Notes: generated from the sequence alone by a model not told the origin. Shown: positions 1,162 to 16,640, numbered from the stretch's first letter. The stretch is DNA of 20,000 nucleotides from an uncultured virus (IMG/VR IMGVR_UViG_3300035130_000143) (IMGVR_UViG_3300035130_000143); one strand, 5' to 3'. Numbers and translations: made by a program.

Positions 1162-2339
1162 TATGCCGCCTTTGTGCCTAATCCAGTCTGCGCCAATTTT
1201 TGAGCAAACGTGTCAGTTTTGCCCCCGCGCAATTGCAATCCCCAGGGCGCAGTATACGTCACTGATTCGATGAACATGGCGCGGGGGTCCTGGCGCAAGT
1301 CATCTGGTTCGGCCTCGCCCACCAAAAAGTCGGAAAATGCCAGCCATTTGCCAGGCAACACGTGCCAGGGCAGCACGCGCCCCCCGCCCAGGGTGGTGAT
1401 TTTTTGCTCCGGGTCACTCAATTGTTGCTGGTATTCCAGCGTCATTGGAGCCTGTTCGTACACGGGCATTTGATTAGCATAAATTCCAAACAGGTAACGG
1501 TTGTATGATGCGTCGCCAAACGATAGTAGACGCTTTATTACCTGCCAGCCGCTATTTTGTCTATTTTCATACGGCGCTACTTGGCGAGTGTTGCTCGTAA
1601 TTCTCGACCAGCTTGTGTCAATCACGTCATTTAATTGCGCATCCAGCACGGCTATTATTTTGTCCGACAGGTCTATATCCACACCCGCCGCCGCATCGTA
1701 GGGCATTTTATCGTACATATAAATGTAGCCCAGGCATTCGACCGAAACCTGCGGGGCGTTGGCGCTGCCCAGGTTGACGCTTTTTGAATTTGTTGGATAG
1801 GCATTTTCTAATAAATAGGTGGCGAGTTGATCGGCTGCCCGCGCATCGCTGATGTCGCCGCCCGATAGGGACGTGGGCCAATAGCCATATTTTGCAATAG
1901 AATCAGTATCATCCTGACTCAATTGTTTCTGAGCGCCAAATACCGGTGTAACGCCCGTCGTGTCGAGCGTCGTGTACTCTAAATCAACGTCGTTATCCAC
2001 GTCCATCATAGGACCCGCTACAAAATCAAGCGGACCAATGGACGTGCTCACCTTATTGACAAATCCTTCCCAGATGATGACGCTTGCGCTATCTGTTACC
2101 TCGATGTGCCTGCCTAAACCTTCCGTGATCCATTTTTCAAGCTCGCGTTGATTGGTATTGATCTTGAACTGCGCAGACCAGTAACCGCCAATCGCCTGGA
2201 TAGTGTGCGAATAGTTCTCGATTTGCCTGGCGAGCGTGGGCAATACGGGCGTCCCTGGCAATATGTAATTGTCTGGCGAACCGCCAATGATGGGATTGAA
2301 CGCCGTGATGGTGGGCGAAAACTCTTGTTTGTGACTCAT
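1161..2339 (-). CDS. Putative baseplate hub / Tal-like tail tip protein (392 aa)
   Basis: Directly follows the Dit-like gene. Size and motifs (IWEGFVNKV; DTDSIAKYG; FIESVTYT) fit gp27-like hub proteins. ATGA coupling. Confidence 0.65.
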   Translation of the reverse strand: MSHKQEFSPTITAFNPIIGGSPDNYILPGTPVLPTLARQIENYSHTIQAIGGYWSAQFKINTNQRELEKWITEGLGRHIEVTDSASVIIWEGFVNKVSTSIGPLDFVAGPMMDVDNDVDLEYTTLDTTGVTPVFGAQKQLSQDDTDSIAKYGYWPTSLSGGDISDARAADQLATYLLENAYPTNSKSVNLGSANAPQVSVECLGYIYMYDKMPYDAAAGVDIDLSDKIIAVLDAQLNDVIDTSWSRITSNTRQVAPYENRQNSGWQVIKRLLSFGDASYNRYLFGIYANQMPVYEQAPMTLEYQQQLSDPEQKITTLGGGRVLPWHVLPGKWLAFSDFLVGEAEPDDLRQDPRAMFIESVTYTAPWGLQLRGGKTDTFAQKLAQTGLGTKAA

Positions 2340-4915
2340 CGCTCGCCCCGCAGTGACAGGTAGCGCGCGTTGTTGAATGCCTGCATTCTTGCGCCCATCG
2401 AGAAGCGTCCAGCCCAGCCGTCAGTTGTGCCCCCGGTGTCCCAGTTCATCAACAAAAACCAAAGGCGCTGGTCGGCGTTGCTCTGTAGAAATGCCAGCGC
2501 GCCCTTCGTGCGCCAGATGGACAGCACGCGCCCGGTCGTATCGCGCGTCAGCGAGCGAATGGTAGCCTTTGGGTTGGTTGTACTATCAATGCTCAAAGTC
2601 TCATCCTGCGCCACTGCGCCGCCGTCTGTTTTCTCTGTTTTGATCTGAGCGTCTATCAACATTTCGTCAGCGGGCATTAGAATCAGGTCGTAAAAATCAA
2701 GCGTGCCCGCGCCTTGTGAGCTGGCGTGAATCTCGATAATGAGCGTTTCCAATCGCTCGTCGCCCGTCAATACCCCCGTGCCGTCTGGGATGTCAATGCG
2801 GCCCAGGTCTACGATTTCAGGAAAGTCAACGTCTTTCACCGACGCCGGGCTATTGCTACTGTTGTAAGTCTGGTCTCCAATGTCAATAGTGAGTTGGAGT
2901 TCAAAATCATCCACCGCCCCCGCCGTTTGATCTACGCGGGCAAATGCGTGGTACGAACCGTACCATTGCAATGTGGGGTTAATTACGCTTGAGCCAACGT
3001 CCTGAAACGTCCATTTCCACCGGCGCGCCATCGCTACCGCCCCGCCAGGAGACCAGCGCCCTATGCGCTCAGTGGGAGCCTGGGCGCTCGTGGTAATGGT
3101 GGCGGGCGCATCAGCCGTTGCATCTATGGCGGGTATTTCTTGCTGGTCGCTACAGTTCAGATACGGCGTGAAATTTAAGCCCCGCTCGTTGGAGCGCAGA
3201 GCCATAATGACGCGCGCAATGTCAGCGTCCGTACCGTAACGCGCCTGATTGTCAAGCGCAGCGCGCAAAAGCGCCTCAATGTCGCCCAGGACTTGGCCCT
3301 CGTCTGTTTCTACGTAAGGCCAGAGAGTGGTATACACATCGCGGTTCTGTTGTGTCGGGGGCGTGGGCGCCGCCGCCGCCGTGACGATCAAGCGTACCCA
3401 GTAGCCCGTGACGGCGTTCACGGCGTTGGCGGCCCACGTACTTTCCTCTTGCCAATGCACTGAATTGACGCCCGTGGTATCGAGCGGCTGACCGCCGTCG
3501 TCTGTATTGTCAGCCACGGTCAGCGCGGCCCACGCGCCGCCATTCCAAAATTCCCAACCATTGCCAAATGTACAGCCTGTTTGCCCGGCTGACAAATCGA
3601 AAACGAGTGAGAAAAACGGGCCGCCGCCCGTGATACTGCTCAGCGGGCCATCTTCAATGCCAAAATATAGCACATCGTTGACTGCTGGCACAGCGGGCAA
3701 GAGATTGTACGGCGTCCCAGAACCTAGCAGATTGGCCGAAAACACGCCGCCGTCGTCATACCAGACATGTGTCAGGCCCTTGTAATTGTGTTTGTTGGCT
3801 ATGTACACTTCAGCGTCGCACGTTGCGGAGCGCCCAGCGCCTTTGGATGAGATATAGGTAATGTGCAACTCTGCCGGAGCGCCTACGCCGTCCACGATAC
3901 TATAAAACTCACGGTGTATATTCAGCGGCGAGCCATTATCTTCGGCGGCAACGACGATACTATTACCTGACTGCCAATCAGGCTTGTTGATGATGAGTTG
4001 AATCAGGCTCACGAGGCTGGGCGTGTCATATTGATTTCCCATCACCCAGGCCCCAGGATTCCACGCAATGCCCGCGCTCAGGTCGCGGGCTTCCCAGTCA
4101 GTTGTCGTGGTTAGAGTATCCGTATCGGCATCATCCTGGACTTTAACGGACAGCACTGGCGCGCCGCCGTCGTTGGCCGCCGCCTCGTAGCGCACAAGGG
4201 CTGTCGTGATGATACTGCCCTGCGGAATGGTCACGTTCTGAAAGCGCACCAGGCCGTCATATTCAAGGTTCGCAATAGCATTGCCCATATAGTTTGAGTT
4301 TGATGTCAGCGTCATGGCCGGGCTATTGTCATAACTTCCGTCATCGCTATGCAGCACGGGGTAGAAAATATCGTCGGTTTCGTGACCCTCGCCGCCCATC
4401 CCGCTGATTTCAATGCAGGCTTCGTCTCCTGGCGGATTTGCCAGCCAGTTACCGCGCTCAATACTAATGGAAAAGTTGACCATGCCTGGCGTCTTGCCAG
4501 CGAATGGCTCGCGCAAAATCTGGTCCAGGCCAGGAATAGCATAATCATAGATGAGCGCGTAGCGTCTTTCGGTCTCGCACCCCGCCTTGTCTACCCAATA
4601 CACGGGAGTATTTTGCCACGCGGCAGTCCAATACTGGACGGCTTTTTCCATCAGCCGTTCAAGTTCTTGCAACTGATGCGCCCAACTGTCTTGCGTAGCG
4701 GCGCTGGCTGACAACTCTATAGTCTCAATCGCGTTGCCGCGCTGGCGATTCACCAGCCGTCGCCCCTCGGCCAGCGGGGAACTTTGCCACGTCCCGCCGC
4801 CTTTGGCCTGGACGATGGTCATGCGGCGCGATTCGACTTTGAAAAATGGCTCAAGCAATGAAACCGTGCCTGCCGCCGTACCGTCTGTAAATTCTAACAG
4901 TGGATAACTGGTCAT
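2336..4915 (-). CDS. Putative evolved distal tail protein (Dit) with inserted beta-sandwich/carbohydrate-binding-like modules (859 aa)
   Basis: Immediately after TMP. The N-terminal ~160 aa resemble a Dit belt/arm. aa ~180-355 (RFQNVTIPQGSII...ELHITY) and ~380-525 (WEFWNGGAWAALTV...YWVRL) look like separate beta-sandwich modules. Confidence 0.6.
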   Translation of the reverse strand: MTSYPLLEFTDGTAAGTVSLLEPFFKVESRRMTIVQAKGGGTWQSSPLAEGRRLVNRQRGNAIETIELSASAATQDSWAHQLQELERLMEKAVQYWTAAWQNTPVYWVDKAGCETERRYALIYDYAIPGLDQILREPFAGKTPGMVNFSISIERGNWLANPPGDEACIEISGMGGEGHETDDIFYPVLHSDDGSYDNSPAMTLTSNSNYMGNAIANLEYDGLVRFQNVTIPQGSIITTALVRYEAAANDGGAPVLSVKVQDDADTDTLTTTTDWEARDLSAGIAWNPGAWVMGNQYDTPSLVSLIQLIINKPDWQSGNSIVVAAEDNGSPLNIHREFYSIVDGVGAPAELHITYISSKGAGRSATCDAEVYIANKHNYKGLTHVWYDDGGVFSANLLGSGTPYNLLPAVPAVNDVLYFGIEDGPLSSITGGGPFFSLVFDLSAGQTGCTFGNGWEFWNGGAWAALTVADNTDDGGQPLDTTGVNSVHWQEESTWAANAVNAVTGYWVRLIVTAAAAPTPPTQQNRDVYTTLWPYVETDEGQVLGDIEALLRAALDNQARYGTDADIARVIMALRSNERGLNFTPYLNCSDQQEIPAIDATADAPATITTSAQAPTERIGRWSPGGAVAMARRWKWTFQDVGSSVINPTLQWYGSYHAFARVDQTAGAVDDFELQLTIDIGDQTYNSSNSPASVKDVDFPEIVDLGRIDIPDGTGVLTGDERLETLIIEIHASSQGAGTLDFYDLILMPADEMLIDAQIKTEKTDGGAVAQDETLSIDSTTNPKATIRSLTRDTTGRVLSIWRTKGALAFLQSNADQRLWFLLMNWDTGGTTDGWAGRFSMGARMQAFNNARYLSLRGER

Positions 4916-7836
4916 GGTATCGCCTCTGCCAATACGCGTCGGATCATAGCCTCGAATTGCGCCTCGTCCATTCCGCTGTTGATATTATTGCCGCCCAGTT
5001 GAAATGTGTTTTGCGTGCTGTTGCTGACGCCGGCCATCGTGGGCGGCGCAAAAACAGGCGCTTGCGTCATCGTTGTGGCAGACGAGCCGCCAAAGTTCAA
5101 GTCGGCCTGCGTCTGCTCAATGATCTGCTGCATCGCTGCTGTTGTGGCCTCTACGATCTCGGATGCGCTGGCGTCAGCCGTTAGCCCCCCCAACACCTCT
5201 TGAGCATCGAGGCCGTGTTCTTGTACCAGTTTCATCAAATCAAGTTGCTGTTGCAAGAGCTGCATTTGCTGCTGCGCCTCTTGAAATTCTGCAATCCGCG
5301 CCTCTTGTTCAGCGCGTTCGGCGGCCAACCTGGCGCGTTCCGCCTCAAGCTCGCCGATTTGCTGGAGCGCCTTTTGCTGGTCCTCGAGGTCGGCGGTAGG
5401 GTCTTCAAGCGCCCGCCGCCATTGCTCTAGCGACTCATCTACTGTTTTTAGCTCCTCGTCTAGCGGCTTCAGCTCATCCTCTAGCGTCTTCATGGCCGTC
5501 TGGCCCAGGCCAGAAAGCGCGTCAAAGAGTCGGCCTGGCAATTCCTCGGCAGCCTTTGCCGCCGCCTCCATTTCACGTTCTATATCACGCGCCACTTTTT
5601 CGGCTAGCTTTTCGGCCTCTCGCTCAGCCTTTTCTCGCTCGCGCTCTGCATCGCGTTCGGCCTCTTTGCGCTGGCGTTCAGCCTCTTTTTCGACCTCTTT
5701 GGCCGCGCGCTCGGCTTCTTTTTCAGCTTCTTTGATAGCCTCGGCCTGCGCTTTTGTAGCTTCAATGGAACCAACTTGTGTATCAATGAGTGCATCCAAT
5801 TGCGCCCGGTAGTCTTCCATCGAAAGTGTACCGCTTGCAAGTCTGGCGTTTAGCGCGTCCATGCCCTCGGCCAGCGCGCGCCCTTCCTCACCAACCAGGC
5901 CATAATCGTCTTGAACGCCGCGCACAAGCTCTTGATATTCTTCAAGCGACAGCGCGCCCTCGTCAAGCAATTGGTTCAGGCCATCTATCGCCGCGCTTGC
6001 GGCTCCGGCGGCGTCAACGTCGCTCAGGGCTTCAGCCTGTTCCAATAATGCAACCGTGTGCTCTTGCGCGGCCTGCGCGGCTTCCTCTTGCCGCTGGCGC
6101 GTTTCCTCAAGTTTTTGTTGATAAGCTTCCTGTTTTTCTCTGCTTTCCTCAAGCGCCCATACGAGCCGTTTTTGCGCCGCCTCTTCCTCATCGGTGACAA
6201 TCACGCCGTCCTCTTTGGCTTTTATCAGCGTGAACATTTTGGCATCCACTGCGGACATGGCCTCGTCAACGGCCTTTAATTCCTCAGCGGTCATCTTGAT
6301 GGCATCAATGTCGGCCTCGCGGGCGGCTTTCGCTTCAATTTCAGCCCAGGTCAACCCCTGCGTAGCCTGAATTGAATCCATGATGGCCTCTTGATTTTCG
6401 CGTTCAGCGTTAGTCAAGTTTTCCCAATCTACTTTGGATTGCTGAATGCGCTTGTGCATTTCAAATGAGGCCTGGTCCACGGCGACGATAGACTGGCCCG
6501 TCTCTTTTAGCGCCTCATTGGCAAGCTCCACCTGGGTTATGTATTGACTATAGTTTTCTGTTCCTTCCTGTATTTCCCGATCAAGCGCAGAGACCGCAGC
6601 GCCCATCGTGGCGGCAAATTCCGCGTCAGTGCCCAACATATCCCCCAGGATGCCGCCAGTGACAATATTCTTGTTGTATTTCTCGGTTGCCTGCTCCATC
6701 TTGGCGGCGATAGAGTCTATTTCCGCGCCCCACGCCGTACTTCCTGCTGTCAGGTCTTTTAGCCCGTCGGCAACTCCCGCGCCGCTCTCCCGGGCGGCGT
6801 CTTGGGCCTTTTCCATTTTTTCAAATTGTGCATCTGCCCGTTCAAGCGCAGCTACCAAAATGGCAAGCTCTACACCTAGCGCGCCCAGGGCCTTGCCAGA
6901 TGTGCCCAATTTTTCAATGAGCGGCCCCAGGCCCCCGCTGAATTTTGTAGCAATGCCAAACGCGCCAGTCATGGCTGTTACCAGCGCGATAGTTGAGCTT
7001 TCCATCTCTGCGATAGTCCCAGCGGCCACCCCTGCAGCCCCGGCCAGCTTTTGTCCAACCTCAATGCGTGTGTCCTCGATCTTGGCCCGCGCCTGCTCCA
7101 TTTTGGCGGCGTTGTCCTCGACTCTATCGCCTAGCGTCGCCAGGCTACGCTCGCTGGCCTCGAACACGGCTTGGGCAAACGCCTGCTCTCGCGTCATGTC
7201 AAAATTAGCCTCTTGCAACTCTATGATGCGCTCGCGCACATAGCCCGCGCTCAGGCCGTAGGCATCGAGACGGGGAATTGAGGTATTTGCAAGCATTAGC
7301 GCAAAGTCACTAACCCTATCGCCCGCGCTTTGCGTCTGGTCTCCCAGTCGGGTGGCCGCCTCAACTACCTTTTCCATTTCGGCGGCGTTGCCGACAATGC
7401 CCATCTGCAACAACTGTGAGGCCGATGTCATGGCCTCCATCTTGTTGACGGTCCCGCCCGCGCCGCGCTGGAACGCTTCAAGGTTTGCAGCCGCGCCCCC
7501 GGCCTGTTCAGCAAAAGCCTCAAAGCGCGCTTGCTGGCGGTCGAAATTAGCGCCCAGTTCTGCCAGCCCCAGCCCGGAGCGGATCAACTCCTCGGCTTGT
7601 GAATAGGCTTTTTCGACAAGCTCAACGCTGGCGGCCAACTCAACGTTGCTCTGGGCCGATTCCTCAATAGACGTATCAACCCCCTTGAGCGCCTGCGACA
7701 TCTGCATAGCGCCAGATTTCGCCTCGCCGGTAGCCGCCTCCATAGCATCAAGCCCGGCCAGGTAGCGGTCTAGCCCGGCTTGAAATTGTTCATCCAGGAG
7801 TACGGCTTCTAGCCCTATTCGCTCGCCGTCCGTCAT
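4912..7836 (-). CDS. Tail tape measure protein (974 aa; start revised from 7872 to 7836)
   Basis: Long Ala/Glu/Gln-rich helical protein with a hydrophobic Gly/Ala stretch and a typical C-terminus (NSTQNTFQL...QFEAMIRRVLAEAI). ATG at 7836 has a GAGGAG RBS and overlaps the TGA of the TAC extension (ATGA). Confidence 0.9.
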   Translation of the reverse strand: MTDGERIGLEAVLLDEQFQAGLDRYLAGLDAMEAATGEAKSGAMQMSQALKGVDTSIEESAQSNVELAASVELVEKAYSQAEELIRSGLGLAELGANFDRQQARFEAFAEQAGGAAANLEAFQRGAGGTVNKMEAMTSASQLLQMGIVGNAAEMEKVVEAATRLGDQTQSAGDRVSDFALMLANTSIPRLDAYGLSAGYVRERIIELQEANFDMTREQAFAQAVFEASERSLATLGDRVEDNAAKMEQARAKIEDTRIEVGQKLAGAAGVAAGTIAEMESSTIALVTAMTGAFGIATKFSGGLGPLIEKLGTSGKALGALGVELAILVAALERADAQFEKMEKAQDAARESGAGVADGLKDLTAGSTAWGAEIDSIAAKMEQATEKYNKNIVTGGILGDMLGTDAEFAATMGAAVSALDREIQEGTENYSQYITQVELANEALKETGQSIVAVDQASFEMHKRIQQSKVDWENLTNAERENQEAIMDSIQATQGLTWAEIEAKAAREADIDAIKMTAEELKAVDEAMSAVDAKMFTLIKAKEDGVIVTDEEEAAQKRLVWALEESREKQEAYQQKLEETRQRQEEAAQAAQEHTVALLEQAEALSDVDAAGAASAAIDGLNQLLDEGALSLEEYQELVRGVQDDYGLVGEEGRALAEGMDALNARLASGTLSMEDYRAQLDALIDTQVGSIEATKAQAEAIKEAEKEAERAAKEVEKEAERQRKEAERDAEREREKAEREAEKLAEKVARDIEREMEAAAKAAEELPGRLFDALSGLGQTAMKTLEDELKPLDEELKTVDESLEQWRRALEDPTADLEDQQKALQQIGELEAERARLAAERAEQEARIAEFQEAQQQMQLLQQQLDLMKLVQEHGLDAQEVLGGLTADASASEIVEATTAAMQQIIEQTQADLNFGGSSATTMTQAPVFAPPTMAGVSNSTQNTFQLGGNNINSGMDEAQFEAMIRRVLAEAIP
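5566..5730 (-). repeat. About five 11-residue E/K/R/A-rich repeats within the tape measure protein
   Basis: EAEKEAERAAK / EVEKEAERQRK / EAERDAERERE / KAEREAEKLAE / KVARDIEREME. Confidence 0.6.
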
Positions 7837-8093
7837 GTCTCCTCTTTTGGCCTGCTCAAGTATGCAATCCAATCACTCATAGTGCGCTCTGATTTCCATA
7901 CCTCGACCATTCTGCCGCGATGCTCGTCGCTCAATTCGTCCCAGATATGGAGTGGAACGCGCCAGGCGTAGGCCGCCCGGTCGTAGGTGAACTGTTGATT
8001 ATGATACCAACTGCCTAGCGATCCGGACGCTTTTGCTAACACCTCACGAATTTGTGATAGCGTCCAGCCGTCCGATTTGTTCCATCGCACGTC
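7833..8093 (-). CDS. Tail assembly chaperone C-terminal extension (gpT-like), probably expressed by +1 frameshift
   Basis: ORF in the +1 frame overlapping the TAC 3' end, with no RBS before GTG 8090. Ends in ATGA coupled to TMP. WDELSDEHRGRMV helical motif. Confidence 0.7.
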   Translation of the reverse strand, partial: DVRWNKSDGWTLSQIREVLAKASGSLGSWYHNQQFTYDRAAYAWRVPLHIWDELSDEHRGRMVEVWKSERTMSDWIAYLSRPKEET

Positions 8094-8613
8094 GAAATGT
8101 ATCGGCGGCTAATTGCCGCCCCGCCTCTGTAAAATTGCTCTGACCCTGGATGAGCTTAACCAGCCAAATTAACTCCTGATTGGAAACCACGACCTCGGTT
8201 TCTATCCAGTGCATTTTGCGCTCGTCTGGGTCTTCTGGTATTTCGAGCCCGCGCCGCTCTTGTTTTTCTACCCAGCCGTTTTCGGGCGGGTCCGGCATTC
8301 CATCCAGTAGATAAACGCGCGCCGTGCGCGTCCATACCAGCCCGTTAAGCTCACGCCTTAGTTCAATATAGCGCGCCCAAAGCGCCTTTTCTTCCTCTGT
8401 GCCGTCTAGTATGGTTTTCTCGGTGTGCGTGCGCGTTTCGGTCCAATTGCCAAACGGGCCGCCGCCGCACTTGATCTCGTAGGTGGGCCGCTCTGGCATA
8501 GCGCCGTGCTCTTTTTCAAATTCTGCTTGTACCTGGGCACGCACCTTTGTAATGAGGAAATCCGACACGGGGCGCAATTCTAATTCTGTGCCGTTTTGCG
8601 TAATGTGTGTCAT
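8044..8613 (-). CDS. Tail assembly chaperone (gpG-like, 189 aa)
   Basis: Lies between the tube-like genes and TMP, charged and helical, with an overlapping downstream ORF as in G/GT pairs. Confidence 0.75.
   Translation of the reverse strand: MTHITQNGTELELRPVSDFLITKVRAQVQAEFEKEHGAMPERPTYEIKCGGGPFGNWTETRTHTEKTILDGTEEEKALWARYIELRRELNGLVWTRTARVYLLDGMPDPPENGWVEKQERRGLEIPEDPDERKMHWIETEVVVSNQELIWLVKLIQGQSNFTEAGRQLAADTFRRAMEQIGRLDAITNS
8092..8100 (-). promoter_or_regulatory. Candidate +1 ribosomal frameshift site ACA_TTT_CGA
   Basis: In-frame UUU_CGA, 4 codons after a TAG that closes the +1 frame upstream. tRNA-Phe can re-pair from UUU to UUC. Confidence 0.6.
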
Positions 8614-8990
8614 GATATTGTCCCCCAGTTGGGAGTTTCAATATCGCAGGTAAAGGCTATTTTGATCCTTAGCATGTTCCCGTTAGCCTCAACGGCATTC
8701 GGTATACGTCTATCGTCTATTTTGCAATCCACGAAACGGTGCATTAAAACACCGTTGATGCACGCCTCGTTTTTGGGGCCGCATTCGGTGTAATAAAGCT
8801 CGAACGCTTCACCATCTAGCATTGTAATTAAATCTTGTCGAAAAGGAAGCGCGCCAATCAGGCGAAAACCCATAACGGGATTGAATTGTATCTCTGACAC
8901 ACAAATATGATCGAGATACAGCAAGTCTCCGTTGGTTTTTTTCCAAAAAAGCGCCGTACCATCATTAGTTATTGGAAGTCCCGGTATCAT
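8610..8990 (-). CDS. Short divergent paralogue of the putative tail-tube domain (126 aa; start revised from 9050 to 8990)
   Basis: ATG 8990 is preceded by AAGGGGACAAAAA. DCKIDDRRIPNAVEANGNML aligns by eye to DCTFTDDPIENAVETEADTL of 10599..12077, and FELYY to FNLYV. Confidence 0.65.
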   Translation of the reverse strand: MIPGLPITNDGTALFWKKTNGDLLYLDHICVSEIQFNPVMGFRLIGALPFRQDLITMLDGEAFELYYTECGPKNEACINGVLMHRFVDCKIDDRRIPNAVEANGNMLRIKIAFTCDIETPNWGTIS

Positions 8991-9074: not shown

Positions 9075-10577
9075 CTATCCGCTGACGCTAGCAATAAATG
9101 AGGTTGCCGCGTTCACCTCGCCAACCAAAAATGCCTGGTTGGAGTGGCAGATATTTAGCCAATTCATGCCACTGTTAGTGACTGTATTTTCAGCCACCCA
9201 CGAGTCGCCGCCGTCAATGGATTTATACACGCGCCCCACCGGTGCAGCGGTGTTTTTGAGCAAAAAGCCCGTCAGGCCATCTGGCAAAAACGTCACGCAC
9301 TCAATGGTGTCCGTGGCCGCCGCACTCAAACCAGTGCTCTTGACTTCCCAGGTCGTCGTACCGTCAAATGACATGTACAGCGGGACTGCGGCTGCTACGC
9401 CGTTGTTGGTGCCGACAATCAGCCGGTTCTCGCTGAAAACGCAGACGGTGTTAAGCGTGTCGCCGCTGCCCGTGGCCGTCTGCGCCGTCCAGTTCACGCC
9501 GCCGTCCACCGTGCCGATTATCACGTCAGTTGCACCCACGGCATAGCCCACATTTTCGTCACAGAAATGTATGGCGCTCAAAGACGTTGCGCCGCTGGCT
9601 GATAGCGCCGTCGTTTGTTCAGCCCAACTCGCGCCGCCGTCAAGGCTTTTGTAGACCCTGCCGCCATCTGTGCAAATGTAGCCAATGGTCGTGCCGGGCA
9701 CAAAAAACATACTGCCGCCGCCGACTGTGGCCTCTGCGTTAGTTGAACCGACATCAACCTGCGTCCATGTAGCCGTCGCATCATCGCTGTACTCCACCTG
9801 CAATGGCGTAGCCGCCAGCGTGCCGCGCACGTAGATGTATCGCTCGGTGTTGGTGTCAATTTGCAAAATCTTTCCGCTGTTAACGTTCGTGCCAGCTGCA
9901 AATCCCGATGCCGGACTGGTCCAAGTCGCGCCTGTATCAGTGCTCAAGAACACGTCAGGAATAGCCGCCGCGACGGTATCGGCGCTGGCCGTCATCACCT
10001 CACATTTCCCACGCCTCGCGCCGCAAGCCCCGGCACAGCGTTGAGCGGCTGCCGTGATGTGGTTTAGCGCCGCCGTCTCGCTGGTGGCAATGCGCGCCAC
10101 GGTAAGCGGTCTGTGGTCAATGCGCCCAATCCAGCCGGTCACAGCCCACGTGTGATCGAGCAGTGTTCCCGTTTCGCGCTGCACGGGATTGACAACAACG
10201 TCGTCAGTCAAGCGCGCGCGGCGATACACCCATGCGCGCTCGCGGTTGCCAAACACCTGCTTGCTGTCACACTTGCTCACGACGACATACAGATTAAAGG
10301 GGCACCCGTCGTCTTTGACGCGCTCCAGGAAATTCGCCGCCGGGCCTTCGTAGGACGTGATATTAAACGCCGGTTGCGCGGCAGGCGACAATTCCTCTGC
10401 CACCTGTTTGTACTCCCTGGTTACGCTATCAACACAATGGCGCGGCGTTGGCGTTGGTTTAGGATTGGGCAGATTGTCTACCATGACGCACTCACCCAAC
10501 GGGAATACCTCTGTCCCATCTCCAAATTGGATGAATACCGCACCGTCTAGGCCATCATAAAGTGTCGGATCACTCAT
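9075..10577 (-). CDS. Putative major tail tube protein fused to a YCF48/BNR Asp-box beta-propeller (paralogue B, 500 aa)
   Basis: Strong RBS AAAGGAG. The N-terminal ~155 aa beta domain sits at the tail-tube position. Six Asp-boxes (STDTGATW, SDDATATW, SLDGGASW, TVDGGVNW, SFDGTTTW, SIDGGDSW). The propeller is well supported; the tube role is inferred from synteny. Confidence 0.7.
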   Translation of the reverse strand: MSDPTLYDGLDGAVFIQFGDGTEVFPLGECVMVDNLPNPKPTPTPRHCVDSVTREYKQVAEELSPAAQPAFNITSYEGPAANFLERVKDDGCPFNLYVVVSKCDSKQVFGNRERAWVYRRARLTDDVVVNPVQRETGTLLDHTWAVTGWIGRIDHRPLTVARIATSETAALNHITAAAQRCAGACGARRGKCEVMTASADTVAAAIPDVFLSTDTGATWTSPASGFAAGTNVNSGKILQIDTNTERYIYVRGTLAATPLQVEYSDDATATWTQVDVGSTNAEATVGGGSMFFVPGTTIGYICTDGGRVYKSLDGGASWAEQTTALSASGATSLSAIHFCDENVGYAVGATDVIIGTVDGGVNWTAQTATGSGDTLNTVCVFSENRLIVGTNNGVAAAVPLYMSFDGTTTWEVKSTGLSAAATDTIECVTFLPDGLTGFLLKNTAAPVGRVYKSIDGGDSWVAENTVTNSGMNWLNICHSNQAFLVGEVNAATSFIASVSG

Positions 10578-10598
10578 TGTAACTACTCCTTTCGCGGA

Positions 10599-12077
10599 TT
10601 ATCCGCTAATTTTTGCTATAAAACTTGTGCCGCCCTGGGCGTCGCCCACTACAACCCCCAAGTTGGGCTGGCAAACCGCTAATGCTTTTAAGAAGTTACT
10701 CGTAGGCGTTTCAATCAAGCGCCAGTTATAGCCACCGTTTATGCTCTTGTAAATGTTGCCTGCGCTGGCAACCACACTTTTGATAGCATATCCCGTCAGG
10801 CCATCTGGCAAAAACCGGACATCGTAGCCCACCGTCACGCCTGTGACAACGGCCCAGCGCGTGACATCAGTCCAGGTAGTAGCGGCATCGTAGCTCATGA
10901 ACAAATTGCCGCCTGAACCAGCGATAGAATAGTTGCCCATTATGAGACGTTGACGGTCAAAGACATGCAAGGCCAGCCAATCCTCGCCGAGGCCGCTGGG
11001 ATTATCGGTCCAGGTCTTGCCGCCATCTGTAGTAGACAAAATGGTATCGTTGTCGCCTACGGCGTATCCCACCAGCGCGTCAGCAAAATGAATGGCAATT
11101 AGCTGGTCGCCGCCGCTGGCCGTCGCCGCGCTATCCTGTTCGGTCCAGTCTACGCCATTGTAAAAATAGACTCTGCCGTCATTGCTACACATCCAGCCAT
11201 GACGGCGGTCAAGGAAAAATAATGATGTGTCCTTAGGAGTTCCATCGCCGGGCGTTTCACCCACTACAGTATCCACCCACGAGCCGCCCCAAAGCGCGGT
11301 TTCAACTTGCGCCGCCAGGCCAGTTACACTCTCTCGCGCCAGAAATACTCTGCGCCCGTCTGGAGTTGGGACGCACGAAACGGCGGTTATGCCGCTGCCG
11401 GCCTGAAATCCAGATGCGGAAATGGTGATATTGTCACCGCCGTCAGTTGTGCTATAAACATCCGGCGCTGCGCCGCCTACCGTGTCAGCGCCCATGGCGA
11501 ACTGCTCACAGGCCCCTAGCGCCTCGCTGCAATCTGTAGCACAGTTGGGCGCGCAAATTCCCAGGCCGTTCAGGTCTGCCGTGCCAATTGTGGAGATGCG
11601 CGTTATCGTCACCGGTCTATGATCCACGCGCCCGTTGCGCGCCGTGACGTTGAACGAGTGCATTGTCAGCGTGTCGGCTTCAGTCTCCACAGCATTCTCT
11701 ATGGGATCGTCTGTAAATGTGCAATCACGATAGGCCCACGCACGCTCATAATTGTCGAAAGATCGAGCCGTCCCCTTGCGCGCCTGCAACACGTACAGAT
11801 TGAACGGGCAATTTGCCTCTTTGGCCCGCTCCAAATAATGCGCCGCTTCTCTGACGTACACGGTGATGGTCAGATTGGTTGCAGCCGGGGGGCCTGGCTC
11901 AAACCCAATCTGGTTGTAATCGCGTGCGCCAATGGAACTATACACGGGACGTCTGTCAGGCGAGGGGCTGGGCAGCGTCGGCAGAACAGTACAGTCTCCC
12001 AGGTAAAATATCTCTGTCCCGTCGCCAAACTGGACATAGACAAAAGTATCGAGAGAGTGAATCAACTTTTCGTCCAC
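10599..12077 (-). CDS. Putative tail tube protein fused to a YCF48/BNR beta-propeller (paralogue A, 492 aa)
   Basis: Full-length similarity to 9075..10577 (QFGDGTE, CPFNLYV, ERAWxYR, GRxDHRP, AIHFxDxxVGYAVG, FLPDGLTG, YKSIxGG, SFIAxxSG). GTG start with AGAGGT RBS. Confidence 0.7.
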   Translation of the reverse strand: MDEKLIHSLDTFVYVQFGDGTEIFYLGDCTVLPTLPSPSPDRRPVYSSIGARDYNQIGFEPGPPAATNLTITVYVREAAHYLERAKEANCPFNLYVLQARKGTARSFDNYERAWAYRDCTFTDDPIENAVETEADTLTMHSFNVTARNGRVDHRPVTITRISTIGTADLNGLGICAPNCATDCSEALGACEQFAMGADTVGGAAPDVYSTTDGGDNITISASGFQAGSGITAVSCVPTPDGRRVFLARESVTGLAAQVETALWGGSWVDTVVGETPGDGTPKDTSLFFLDRRHGWMCSNDGRVYFYNGVDWTEQDSAATASGGDQLIAIHFADALVGYAVGDNDTILSTTDGGKTWTDNPSGLGEDWLALHVFDRQRLIMGNYSIAGSGGNLFMSYDAATTWTDVTRWAVVTGVTVGYDVRFLPDGLTGYAIKSVVASAGNIYKSINGGYNWRLIETPTSNFLKALAVCQPNLGVVVGDAQGGTSFIAKISG

Positions 12078-12078
12078 G

Positions 12079-12471
12079 CTACCTCTTTGCCGCTCGCTTT
12101 AGCATTTCCTCAAGCAGGGGATTGACCAGGACGCGCTGTAGGGCGGCGCGCGCTTCAGCGGACCCGGCAAGAAAATCACGCCTGGTGTAAATTCGCGCTG
12201 CGTACAACTGCGCGGCAAACTCATCAGCGCCAGGCCCGTCCATCCAGGTGCGCCAGTCCTCGCCATAAAGCGTGCATTTTTCAAGGTCGGATTCCGAGAT
12301 TTCGTTACCCTTGAGTTTATCAACCGGGCAAAAATATCGCCTGTCATCGTGCTGGATAATGACACCCTGGTTGTCACGGTCTATGATCGCAACGGTCAGA
12401 TTGCGTGCCCGCATGCTTTTCTTGCTTCGCTTAGAGCTTTCTCCATTCGTCTCTTGAATATCGTCTGCCAT
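12079..12471 (-). CDS. Hypothetical neck/tail-region protein (130 aa; start uncertain)
   Basis: Fills the gap between the gp10-like gene and tube paralogue A. Overlaps the upstream gene by 76 nt if ATG 12471 is used. Confidence 0.65.
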   Translation of the reverse strand: MADDIQETNGESSKRSKKSMRARNLTVAIIDRDNQGVIIQHDDRRYFCPVDKLKGNEISESDLEKCTLYGEDWRTWMDGPGADEFAAQLYAARIYTRRDFLAGSAEARAALQRVLVNPLLEEMLKRAAKR

Positions 12472-12914
12472 TTTTTCTCTATCTCCCTGCTAAACTCTCG
12501 CGCTTTAATGCCTGGGTGTGTCACGTAAGGCCGCACGGTGTCAATTGAGCCTCGCGCCCCTGCGCTTGAGCCGATGACGCCTGGAATTGTTTTGGGTGCA
12601 AACTGGCTAGAAAATGCCAGGGCTTTTTTGTTGCTCTTGCCGGTGAATATTCCGGCAAAAATTGGATACGGTCCCTTTGTGCCCTTGTCCACGTAGCCAT
12701 AGATTTTATTTTCCGTGTATACCTCAACCGACAGACCGCCCGAAAGGCTGATCTGCATTTCAAACTTGACATCAGTATCCCAGGTCGCCGTCGTCTTCTT
12801 AAAGTCCGCTATGATGTCGCGCCCAGCCTTGCGCAACTCGTTTAGAAATATCGGGCGAAAGGCGTCGCGGCGTAGCGTGGCAGGTTTCAATTCTTTGATT
12901 ACAAGCGCGCTCAT
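12396..12914 (-). CDS. HK97 gp10-like neck/tail completion protein (172 aa)
   Basis: Basic protein with YGYVDKGT and VTHPGIKAREF motifs, typical of the HK97 gp10/Ne1 family. Neck position. Confidence 0.7.
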   Translation of the reverse strand: MSALVIKELKPATLRRDAFRPIFLNELRKAGRDIIADFKKTTATWDTDVKFEMQISLSGGLSVEVYTENKIYGYVDKGTKGPYPIFAGIFTGKSNKKALAFSSQFAPKTIPGVIGSSAGARGSIDTVRPYVTHPGIKAREFSREIEKKWQTIFKRRMEKALSEARKACGHAI

Positions 12915-15449: not shown

Positions 15450-16640
15450 TTATGGCGTTGTGCCGCTTGAATAATAAATGCCGCGAAAGTCCGTTACACC
15501 GACATAGTCCGCGTCATCCCAGCCGCCGATAATATCCTCGACAGCAAACTCAATATCCCCTGTGGCAAAACTGCCCATTAGAAATGCTTGCGGAACCGTG
15601 CCGCTTACCATCTGAATGTCAGAGCGTTTCATAAACGCGACTGGACCATCCCAGCCCTGCAAACGCGCCACCGTTACGGTCGGAACCTCAGACGGGTCAG
15701 CAAACAGATACCACGGCACATTAGCGCCGGCAAAACCGATATACGGATCAACGCGCACACCAGCCACGAATTGATTCAGTACATTGCCGCCAGCGCCGCC
15801 GTATTGCAATAGGTCTTGAAGAATCTGCGCTGCCTGAAGCTCCAACACTTTCGGGATAACCAACCAAACTCGATTAATGTTCATCTGGTTGCCATTCACG
15901 TCCACACGCTGCATCATGGCGTTGAGTCCAATTGCCAGATTCGCAGGAGTCAAGCGCCCCGTCCCGGCATAGACTACACCAAGAGCAACAAGCGCCGCTT
16001 GAGTTGTGGCATTGTCATACAGCGCCGATACCCACTCGTCCAACCAACGCCGCGCTGCATTCACCATGCGCGTTGGCGTCTCGCGGATCTTGCCCAGGTC
16101 ATCGTTCAAGATGGTCTGCCAGCTCACATCGAACTGATCTCCATATTCCTCAACACCGTACTGAATCTGCGTTGGAGTGATGGATGTGGCGGAGAGCTGC
16201 TGTTTGTCACGCCGCTTGTACAGCGTGCCTGGCTCTGACATCCTGAACCGCTTTACATCCCGAAAGTCCGGCGTGGTATCAGGGTAGGTATAATCGCGCC
16301 AGCTGCCAACGTCGTACTGATAATCATCATAAAAGGCGCGACTCAGCGCGTCTGCAAAGTAGTTAGCGAAATGTCCCCGCGTCATTACCTCTAAAAAGGT
16401 TTCGCTATCTCGTATTTCGCGCCATTCACGCAACTCGCGCAAAGCGGCAAGATGCTGGGCGCGTTGCTGTGGATTGAGCACCTGACGCGGCGTACCTCGC
16501 GGCGTGGTACTCACCCGGCTGGTTCCAATAAGTTGCGCCAGGTCACTCTCGCTCAAATTGACCGCATGGCGCGTTTCGTCTTCATTCAGTCCCGCGTCTC
16601 CGCAGGCCGAATCGTAAACCCATCTTATTACACTATCCAT
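15450..16640 (-). CDS. Major capsid protein (HK97 fold, Mu gpT-like family; 396 aa)
   Basis: YGDQFDVSWQTILNDDLG matches the 'YG..F.++.+.+INDDLG' signature. Also PDFR, WLVIPKVLE, WYLFADP and DFRGIY. Follows the protease and decoration genes. GGAG RBS. Confidence 0.9.
   Translation of the reverse strand: MDSVIRWVYDSACGDAGLNEDETRHAVNLSESDLAQLIGTSRVSTTPRGTPRQVLNPQQRAQHLAALRELREWREIRDSETFLEVMTRGHFANYFADALSRAFYDDYQYDVGSWRDYTYPDTTPDFRDVKRFRMSEPGTLYKRRDKQQLSATSITPTQIQYGVEEYGDQFDVSWQTILNDDLGKIRETPTRMVNAARRWLDEWVSALYDNATTQAALVALGVVYAGTGRLTPANLAIGLNAMMQRVDVNGNQMNINRVWLVIPKVLELQAAQILQDLLQYGGAGGNVLNQFVAGVRVDPYIGFAGANVPWYLFADPSEVPTVTVARLQGWDGPVAFMKRSDIQMVSGTVPQAFLMGSFATGDIEFAVEDIIGGWDDADYVGVTDFRGIYYSSGTTP

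Follow-up and report, generated by a model that had tools for sequence, protein, structure and literature searches.

The window, a 20,000-nucleotide stretch of DNA from an uncultured virus (IMG/VR IMGVR_UViG_3300035130_000143), carries two adjacent genes, A and B, whose products probably serve as tail tube (major tail) proteins in a siphovirus-type phage, each fused to a seven-bladed beta-propeller (probability roughly 0.75). The tube assignment of both proteins is well supported by predictions and context, namely the predicted fold, synteny and predicted self-association.

The two proteins are paralogues from end to end. In BLASTP, A and B were 39% identical across 498 columns, with 7 gaps and E 7e-112, and this result and the coordinates agree with an earlier note on this DNA, which had described a pair of full-length paralogues of ~500 aa. 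The tripartite layout given there, with an N-terminal domain, a Cys cluster and a YCF48/BNR propeller, was seen in both A and B, and the gene starts were also as described: B begins with ATG, 8 nt behind AAAGGAG, and A, which has fewer Asp-boxes, begins with GTG behind the weaker ribosome-binding site AGAGG, 1 nt past the stop codon of the gene before it. In the public annotation, B (P0003) is called with 469 aa and thus starts 31 residues late. The longer frame is conserved (the family protein P0004 covers 100% of B, and Q17 is at least 90% conserved), and in the models the first 31 residues of B supply the first strand of the tube domain as well as interface residues. The public calls of P0005 and P0016 likewise begin at an internal Met (469 aa), with the B-type N-terminal 31 residues lost.

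The fold of B was predicted with AlphaFold2 from an alignment of 49 family members. Full-length B was modelled with a predicted local distance difference test (pLDDT) score of 92.5 and a predicted template-modelling (pTM) score of 0.90. Modelled alone (pLDDT 91.8), residues 1-168 gave a beta-sandwich, a helix at residues 83-90 and a long hairpin at 114-147, the combination of beta-sandwich, single alpha-helix and long lumen hairpin that characterises the tube class. A Foldseek search of the PDB with this domain returned 71 matches at E ≤0.001, headed by the tubes of a Streptomyces contractile injection system (CIS; E 6e-7), AFP, PVC, 80alpha, NF5 and lambda and by Hcp. Alignment by VIA-align gave the highest agreement with the PVC tube (Z 13.2, root-mean-square deviation (rmsd) 2.8 Å, 137 of 148 residues), followed by lambda gpV (Z 11.5), SPP1 gp17.1 (11.5-11.6), 80alpha (11.3), R4C (10.8) and T4 gp19 (10.3), and the tube-fold match spans B residues 1-159. 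In a Foldseek-independent search of 48,161 PDB representatives, 43 chains reached Z ≥8, and all of the 42 chains listed were phage-tail, tailocin, contractile injection system or type VI secretion system (T6SS) Hcp entries. The search of BFVD gave 221 matches at E ≤0.001, many of them labelled tail tube protein. The suspicion of a tail-tube fold in the N-terminal domain was thereby borne out by comparison with lambda gpV, the SPP1 tube and Hcp.

The same domain gave no tube-family match in Pfam (A, B and the 49 members, with A and B also searched at E up to 10), PHROG or NCBIfam, and a profile of 15 N-terminal domains found nothing significant among PDB sequences (best E 0.38). PHROG offered no family for any part of A or B, and the NCBIfam matches were confined to the propeller and fell below the cut-offs. 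At the sequence level the tube domain thus appears to be a family of its own.

Self-association was examined by folding four copies of the tube domain with the 49-row alignment. The score was 0.73 in all three runs, compared with 0.02 for the best control, with contact agreement of at least 89% and partner pLDDT of at least 77; the mark set for self-association is reached by 20 of 30 proteins solved as same-chain pairs and by 1 of 23 solved single chains. In the predicted geometry each copy uses two different faces, and hairpin 122-140 pairs with strand 29-45 of the next copy. Head-to-tail contacts of this kind build tube rings. The predictions support head-to-tail self-association of the tube domain; the multimer behaviour that the earlier note had envisaged is covered as far as the association of four copies, and ring closure and subunit number lie outside this result.

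Gene order was compared in relatives recovered by a profile scan of IMG/VR (51 loci, with ~10 kb kept on either side). A hidden Markov model (HMM) of the N-terminal domain was found in 26 of the 51 loci, always within a stop-to-stop open reading frame (ORF) of 490-592 aa. Such an ORF is single in 24 of the 26; the exceptions are L003, with two copies of which the first is cut by the contig end, and L007, with a second reading frame in tandem. In nine mapped relatives the order is an ORF of ~160-190 aa, one of ~95-160 aa, the tube-propeller ORF of ~490 aa, one of ~160-240 aa and then a long ORF of 630-1640 aa. The long ORFs of L009 and L014 match the tape measure family TMP_3 (PF20155) at 74.3 and 57.2 bits (cut-off 41), an SPP1_Dit-like gene follows the TMP_3 gene of L009, and Sipho_Gp37-like tail-tip genes occur in L001, L004 and L009. 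No sheath or tube family was detected in the 70 flanking ORFs scanned from five relatives, and no sheath family in the window (Pfam, PHROG). Both in the window and in the relatives, the tube-propeller genes lie between the neck-like (head-tail joining) genes and the putative genes for the chaperone and the tape measure. A and B therefore hold the major-tail-protein slot of a siphovirus-type tail module, and the tube-propeller gene is the only tube-fold candidate seen in the single-copy relatives. The placement of A and B between the neck and the chaperone and tape-measure genes, as the earlier note had it, agrees with the window order and with the synteny search of IMG/VR homologues, which recovered the same gene order.

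The position also bears on the reading of A and B as Dit-like distal tail proteins in place of shaft subunits. A tube-like N-terminal domain with a C-terminal (carbohydrate-)binding module is typical of Dit, and the fold matches include tail-tip entries as well, with lower Z (7.9 for the T5 tail tip, 8.5 for that of Bxb1). This reading is hardly credible, however, for proteins whose Z against shaft tubes is higher (10-13) and whose genes lie upstream of the chaperone and tape-measure candidates, whereas a Dit gene comes after that for the tape measure; L009, moreover, has its separate SPP1_Dit-like gene after TMP_3.

As to another gene being the tube, no convincing alternative was found in the window or in the relatives. 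The one candidate is an orphan ORF of 126 aa, which would be the true inner tube, with A and B as an outer layer or in some other role. It sits between B and the chaperone-like gene, and its model matched clusters of the Atlas labelled Phage_tube_2, Phage_T4_gp19 or 'virion structural protein' (TM 0.57-0.60). We regard this as very unlikely: the model is poor (pLDDT 0.49, pTM 0.41), the matches lie below the naming bar, and FMN-binding and PilZ barrels match equally well. The ORF had no homologue in 5.8 billion proteins in a word-based search, was absent from all 14 relatives tested, and showed no hhalign similarity to the tube domain of A or B. In addition, the chaperone-like gene begins 3-114 nt past the tube-propeller gene in six of the nine mapped relatives. 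The G+C content of the ORF is 0.50, compared with 0.55-0.59 on either side.

The C-terminal parts of A and B match PSII_BNR (PF14870, YCF48) at 31.8 and 39.1 bits, respectively (gathering cut-off 27), and the family is matched by all 49 of the 49 members. In VIA, residues ~155-500 of B aligned with seven-bladed propellers at Z 29.8-28; these matches (virginiamycin B lyase, a designed seven-bladed protein, WD40 proteins) are generic, at 7-12% identity. Six strict Asp-boxes, ~45-50 residues apart, were counted in B and two in A. The sequence kinship of the propeller is to the Ycf48 and Sortilin-Vps10 types of BNR propeller, with a PDB sequence match to Ycf48 at E 3e-4 over residues 302-364. An assignment as a Ycf48 orthologue was rejected, since the NCBIfam equivalog NF010237 scored 33.8 and 40.6 bits against a cut-off of 326. 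No Ig-like (immunoglobulin-like; Big_1 or Big_2) or FN3 domain family of Pfam was found in A or B; one of the 49 members gave a weak Big_12 match.

Sialidases belong to the BNR/Asp-box propellers, and an enzymatic propeller was considered accordingly, that is, a sialidase, a GH74-type glycosidase or a depolymerase with which the shaft would digest capsule or slime. Weak PDB sequence matches to sialidase L and anhydrosialidase (E 0.006-0.014) and NCBIfam matches to the F510_1955 glycosylhydrolase (E 7e-6 and 3e-5) point in this direction. The latter reached only 23-25 bits against a cut-off of 175, however, and the sialidase/BNR glycosidase families stayed below threshold (BNR_2 16.9 against 31.4 bits, BNR_3 23.2 against 27). 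Sequence similarity is strongest to the non-catalytic Ycf48 and Sortilin-Vps10 families, and no catalytic motif was identified at the sequence level, so that an enzyme is unlikely.

The Cys residues of the linker and of the two domains co-occur across 177 members, as judged from raw counts, in which the kinship of the members is included. C92 and C181 are both present in 149 members, with the first alone in 1, the second alone in 3 and neither in 24; the corresponding counts are 114, 1, 20 and 42 for C103/C185, 96, 0, 5 and 76 for C192/C477, and 74, 2, 6 and 95 for the columns of B residues 177 and 237. The pattern suggests that disulfides anchor the linker on the tube domain and hold the propeller closed. 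Together with the full-length pTM, it points to a propeller attachment that would be fixed and not floppy.

Conservation was compared over 15,576 pairs of the 177 members, and mean pairwise identity was 35.5% for the propeller and 29% for the tube domain. Being more conserved than the tube domain, the propeller does not look like a dispensable adhesin. An adhesive role of the propeller coat is plausible by analogy with Ig-like and carbohydrate-binding decorations and with the BNR propellers encoded next to tail fibre genes of podophages; the conservation agrees at least as well with a structural coat or with a conserved ligand. Glycan or S-layer adhesion with two specificities, as proposed in the earlier note, would be a conjectural form of such an adhesive role.

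The history of the two paralogues was inspected in a maximum-likelihood tree of 31 rows. A and five other proteins form a clade with 100/100 support and a stem length of 0.81 changes per column, nested in a 23-row clade (100/99) that holds B and its relatives and in which the tree does not fix its exact placement. The A orthologues recovered by protein search are 54-64% identical to A. A scan of metagenome contigs with A gave 50 loci, all with propeller-level matches only, and there is one indirect clue to A-B pairing in relatives: the A-like fragment P0276 and the B-like P0005 both list a longest contig of 6293 nt. The A-type proteins have in common the loss of C48 and of the blade 2 Asp-box. 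Identity to three relatives in the B lineage is higher for the propeller than for the tube domain (80/74, 66/57 and 62/50%), and in the A lineage the relation is reversed (tube 64-67%, propeller 48-56%). This can be read as duplication, followed by rapid remodelling of the A propeller and then by purifying selection on both copies. A decaying copy was considered for A and ruled out, as A belongs to a conserved clade of six rows. The two L003 copies cluster together (Shimodaira-Hasegawa-like approximate likelihood ratio test 91, quick tree), which indicates that the L003 duplication was independent; the tandem frames of L007 were not placed in the tree.

It is conceivable, and we keep it as a tentative alternative, that the shaft is built by B only, with A as a minor tube-fold protein of specialised use, for instance in the ring adjoining the tail tip or the neck; A would then be comparable to the paralogues that act as tube initiator or adaptor in contractile systems. 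The long stem branch after the duplication, the loss of four of six strict Asp-boxes, the GTG start with its weaker ribosome-binding site and the fact that 24 of the 26 IMG/VR loci in which the tube domain was detected manage with a single gene are all in line with this. A has nevertheless kept the whole architecture, propeller included, and is conserved in six rows at 54-64% identity, and the independent duplication of L003 and the tandem frames of L007 suggest a wider benefit of two shaft subunits. The assignment of B as the major and A as the minor subunit, as offered in the earlier note, is consistent with the likeness of B to the single-copy relatives and with the long stem and lost Asp-boxes of A.

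In the reading that we prefer, with both A and B as tube proteins, the N-terminal domains of ~160 aa would polymerise head to tail into rings, hairpin 122-140 of one subunit pairing with strand 29-45 of the next, and the rings would stack around the tape measure protein into a DNA conduit. Each subunit would carry one BNR/Ycf48-type seven-bladed propeller on the tube exterior, so that the shaft would be coated with propellers, and the Cys-rich linker probably staples tube domain, linker and propeller together by disulfides. B would be the canonical subunit, resembling the single gene of most relatives. A would be a conserved paralogue with its tube domain kept and propeller blades 1-3 remodelled, and it probably assembles together with B or serves in one particular stretch of the tube. 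The propellers may serve reversible adhesion to a host surface polymer, a stiffening outer coat, or both. Tape measure proteins act as rulers at ~1.5 Å per residue; the 986-aa tape-measure candidate would thus specify a tail of ~150 nm, which at a rise of ~40 Å would hold ~37 rings and more than 200 propellers. A propeller is ~50 Å wide and 30-35 Å thick, and by this estimate from generic dimensions six per ring fit if the propeller axis lies roughly along the tail. A bolder version, in which the tube is a heteropolymer of the two paralogues, the rigid and possibly disulfide-stapled propellers form a continuous, essential structural and adhesive coat, as opposed to a dispensable decoration, on a non-contractile tail, and the remodelled blades of A offer a second binding surface, is doubtful.

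Several points weigh against these assignments. In the absence of any tube-family sequence match, the tube assignment depends on predicted fold and gene position, and tail terminators have the tube fold as well, as do distal tail proteins and tube initiators. Within the window, the genes for the chaperone and the tape measure were themselves assigned by position only. The self-association calibration is based on two copies, while four were folded, and the complex score may reflect likeness to solved tubes. A-B identity is 39-41% at the predicted interface residues and 47% in the rest of the domain, so the interface is no better conserved and lends co-assembly of A with B no specific support. 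A propeller conserved above the tube domain is unexpected for a host-specific adhesin. The orphan ORF beside B has its own weak tube-like structural lead from modelling. Finally, the place of A and B in the virion shaft is a prediction from the gene sequences.

The family is large. In a search of 1.84 billion proteins, the N-domain profile retrieved 850 cluster representatives at E ≤0.001, with 581 at E ≤1e-10 and 150 at E ≤1e-30. Lengths were tabulated for 149 of the best 150 (P0057 left aside): 125 have 470-520 aa, 13 have fewer than 300, seven have 300-469 and four exceed 520. Nine short proteins among the best 150 end in the tube domain, the linker, the first blade or unrelated sequence (P0184, P0238) and look like fragments; no bare tube domain without a propeller was present among these nine short proteins, examined from the best 150 of the 850 matches. 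Unusual members were also noted. P0134 (723 aa) and P0165 (696 aa) have an insert of ~200 aa within the propeller, lectin/LamG-type by eye in P0134; P0256 (547 aa) has a 56-aa N-terminal extension; and P0180 (772 aa) has a tape-measure-like N-terminus ahead of the tube domain, resembling the start of the 986-aa protein of the window, and could stem from a chimeric contig assembly or from a gene call that reads through.

Among deposited phages, tblastn of B, P0038 and P0116 against 50,697 records detected no family member, the sole match being the propeller of phiVC8. Among GTDB genome contigs there was one match, propeller-only, in an Ignavibacteriae metagenome-assembled genome, and thus no host was identified. 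The best BFVD match, A0A1P8DJ39 (497 aa, TM 0.67), carries no name. Full-text literature searches found no paper on a tube-propeller fusion. The architecture is widespread in uncultured phages and undescribed as far as these searches reach.

The features of the window are listed below. The matching IMG/VR record has 36.5 kb and is rated 62% complete. All long ORFs of the window lie on the minus strand and form a phage structural module, which in the direction of transcription consists of a 675-aa ORF, the capsid gene, seven ORFs of 75-306 aa, A, B and ORFs of 126, 189, 85 and 986 aa, with ORFs of 859, 392 and 387 aa downstream.

Table. Features of the tail module and capsid gene in the window, with the basis of each assignment
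Feature	Coordinates	Strand	Basis or remark
Gene A, diverged paralogue, 492-aa tube-propeller protein	10599..12077	-	GTG start, coupled to upstream stop
A tail-tube-fold domain (predicted), aa 1-166	11580..12077	-	45% identical to the modelled domain of B; N-domain HMM E 6.6e-53
A Cys-rich linker (C175, C179, C183, C190)	11508..11555	-	Sequence; A/B alignment
A seven-bladed BNR/Ycf48-type propeller, 2 strict Asp-boxes	10602..11501	-	Pfam PSII_BNR 31.8 bits, cut-off 27
Gene B, canonical paralogue, 500-aa tube-propeller protein	9075..10577	-	ATG start, AAAGGAG ribosome-binding site
B tail-tube-fold domain (predicted), aa 1-168	10074..10577	-	AlphaFold2 pLDDT 91.8; Foldseek and VIA matches; predicted self-association
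B Cys-rich linker (C181, C185, C192)	10002..10037	-	Sequence and Cys co-occurrence
B seven-bladed BNR/Ycf48-type propeller, 6 strict Asp-boxes	9078..9995	-	PSII_BNR 39.1 bits; VIA Z 29.8
Major capsid protein	15450..16640	-	PF25209 E 3.5e-27; PHROG major-head families
172-aa neck or tail-completion candidate (HK97 gp10-like lead)	12396..12914	-	Synteny in relatives; Atlas clusters
130-aa ORF, start uncertain	12079..12471	-	Between neck gene and A; stop abuts A start
126-aa orphan ORF, weak low-confidence tube-like lead	8613..8990 (ATG at 8990)	-	Between B and chaperone-like gene
189-aa tail-assembly-chaperone candidate	8044..8613	-	By position
85-aa ORF, possible frameshift extension of chaperone	7833..8090	-	Overlaps 3' end of 189-aa gene, +1 frame
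986-aa coiled-coil tape-measure candidate	4912..7872	-	Position and weak SMC coiled-coil match

On the head side, the 675-aa protein at the start of the module gave weak portal/protease-type PHROG matches. The capsid protein of the window also matches the capsid part of NCBIfam protease/capsid fusion models, and in one relative the neck and tail genes are preceded by an ORF of 1212 aa (L001:3706-7344) that matches no Pfam family; the head genes of this phage group may be fused in different ways. The nearest Atlas clusters of the 172-aa protein include PF04883 (TM 0.62-0.65, below the naming bar of the tool), and its homologue lies immediately 5' of the tube-propeller gene in 10 of 14 relatives by tblastn. 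The slot of the 130-aa ORF is filled by ORFs of 94-160 aa in eight of the nine mapped relatives (the exception being L003), and this ORF gave no family match in Pfam (including E up to 10) or PHROG.

On the tail side, a homologue of the 189-aa protein lies immediately 3' of the tube-propeller gene in 6 of 14 relatives (tblastn). The overlap of the 85-aa ORF with the 189-aa gene is in the +1 (or -2) frame, compared with the usual -1, and the same frame relation was seen at L003:2745-3462; the 85-aa ORF could be a programmed frameshift product or a separate gene. The weak SMC coiled-coil match was the sole profile match of the 986-aa ORF. The 859-aa protein that follows it (window 2336-4915, minus strand) is homologous to its L014 counterpart (42-46% identity). 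Large proteins encoded after the tape measure in relatives match a Rax2 propeller, CBM_4_9 with Kelch, and Sortilin-Vps10 (L001:14886-17408, L004:14112-16910, L014:16704-19781), and propellers seem to be used at the tail tip as well as on the shaft in these phages. In three relatives (L009:6296-7576, L014:5900-7801, L008:6430-8148), the structural module includes a gene for a family-2 glycosyltransferase (PF00535, E 3e-23 to 2e-44), followed by a DUF1360 ORF; the pair precedes the tube-propeller gene by two to three genes. One possibility is phage-encoded glycosylation of virion proteins in L008, L009 and L014. The Pfam scan of the window gave no match to PF00535 or DUF1360.

The closest known systems include the decorated siphophage tail proteins. 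One of these, SPP1 gp17.1*, carries an FN3 domain. Lambda gpV has a Big_2 Ig-like C-terminal domain, T5 pb6 a duplicated tube domain with Big_2, and YSD1_22 an inserted domain with Big_1 (PMC8718954). In passages of this 2021 review, the extra tube-protein domains described are Ig-like, and the word 'propeller' occurs 0 times in the review, in agreement with the statement of the earlier note that known tube decorations are small Ig-like domains. A and B resemble these proteins in the N-terminal tube fold (lambda gpV Z 11.5, SPP1 11.5-11.6, YSD1 9.3), in a C-terminal extra domain that necessarily faces outward and in a gene position before the chaperone and the tape measure. They differ in that the added propeller of ~310-340 aa is about twice the size of the tube domain, whereas the known Ig/FN3 module has 80-100 aa, and is more conserved than the tube domain. 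They also differ in having a Cys-rich linker with a confidently placed propeller (pTM 0.90) in place of a loose tether, and in lacking sequence similarity to the Pfam and PHROG tube families.

The tubes of extracellular contractile injection systems (Pvc1, Afp1, Streptomyces CIS) are the best structural matches of the N-terminal domain (Z 12.3-13.2, rmsd 2.6-3.4 Å, 134-141 residues). Their identity to it is 6-12%, and they lie inside a sheath, whereas no sheath family was found in the window or the 70 flanking ORFs and the tail-tip genes of the relatives are of siphovirus type (SPP1_Dit, Sipho_Gp37). The Hcp2-Hcp3 heterohexamer of Bacteroides fragilis (PDB 9vnd, which entered here as a fold match only) offers a parallel in which tube-fold paralogues stand side by side.

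The propeller, for its part, has the seven-bladed BNR/Asp-box build and the PSII_BNR match in common with Ycf48/HCF136 and with YCF48-related secreted propellers of Bacteroidota, and many propeller-only relatives carry sorting domains of the type IX secretion system. In A and B, unlike Ycf48/HCF136, it is fused to a predicted tube domain in a context unrelated to photosynthesis. The 'outer capsid protein' of the epsilon15-like Vibrio podophages VP2 and phiVC8 likewise has a BNR propeller (25% identity in BLASTP across 223 columns, E 0.003; 30% in tblastn, covering 40% of P0038). Its N-terminal part is dissimilar to A and B, and its gene follows the tail fibre gene of a short-tailed phage. The VP2 protein, a full-length Foldseek match (E 3e-12, TM 0.54, rmsd 13.3), was tried as a family member and rejected, as the likeness is confined to the propeller and the gene lies next to the tail fibre gene of a podophage; it is an example of such propellers on the tail appendages of phages.

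If the bolder version described above is true, with a continuous propeller sheath around a heteropolymeric tube, this would be a third long-tail design, the other two being a tube that is bare or Ig-decorated and a tube inside a contractile sheath. The modules known to decorate tail tubes are small, Ig-like and often dispensable; here the propeller is twice the size of the tube domain, obligatorily fused and spread over hundreds of uncultured lineages. Tandem tube-propeller genes occur in at least three lineages, with independent duplications in two. Questions are raised as to how about six propellers fit on each ring, whether the coat stiffens the tail or binds polymers of the host surface, and whether two types of subunit can make up one tube. 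For annotation, a ~500-aa 'photosystem II stability/assembly factor-like' protein encoded in a phage structural module would be read as a major tail protein, and a rigid propeller array on a self-assembling tube may interest builders of protein nanotubes. Set against the known systems, the decorated major tail protein is a familiar kind of protein, and the propeller is new as its decoration.

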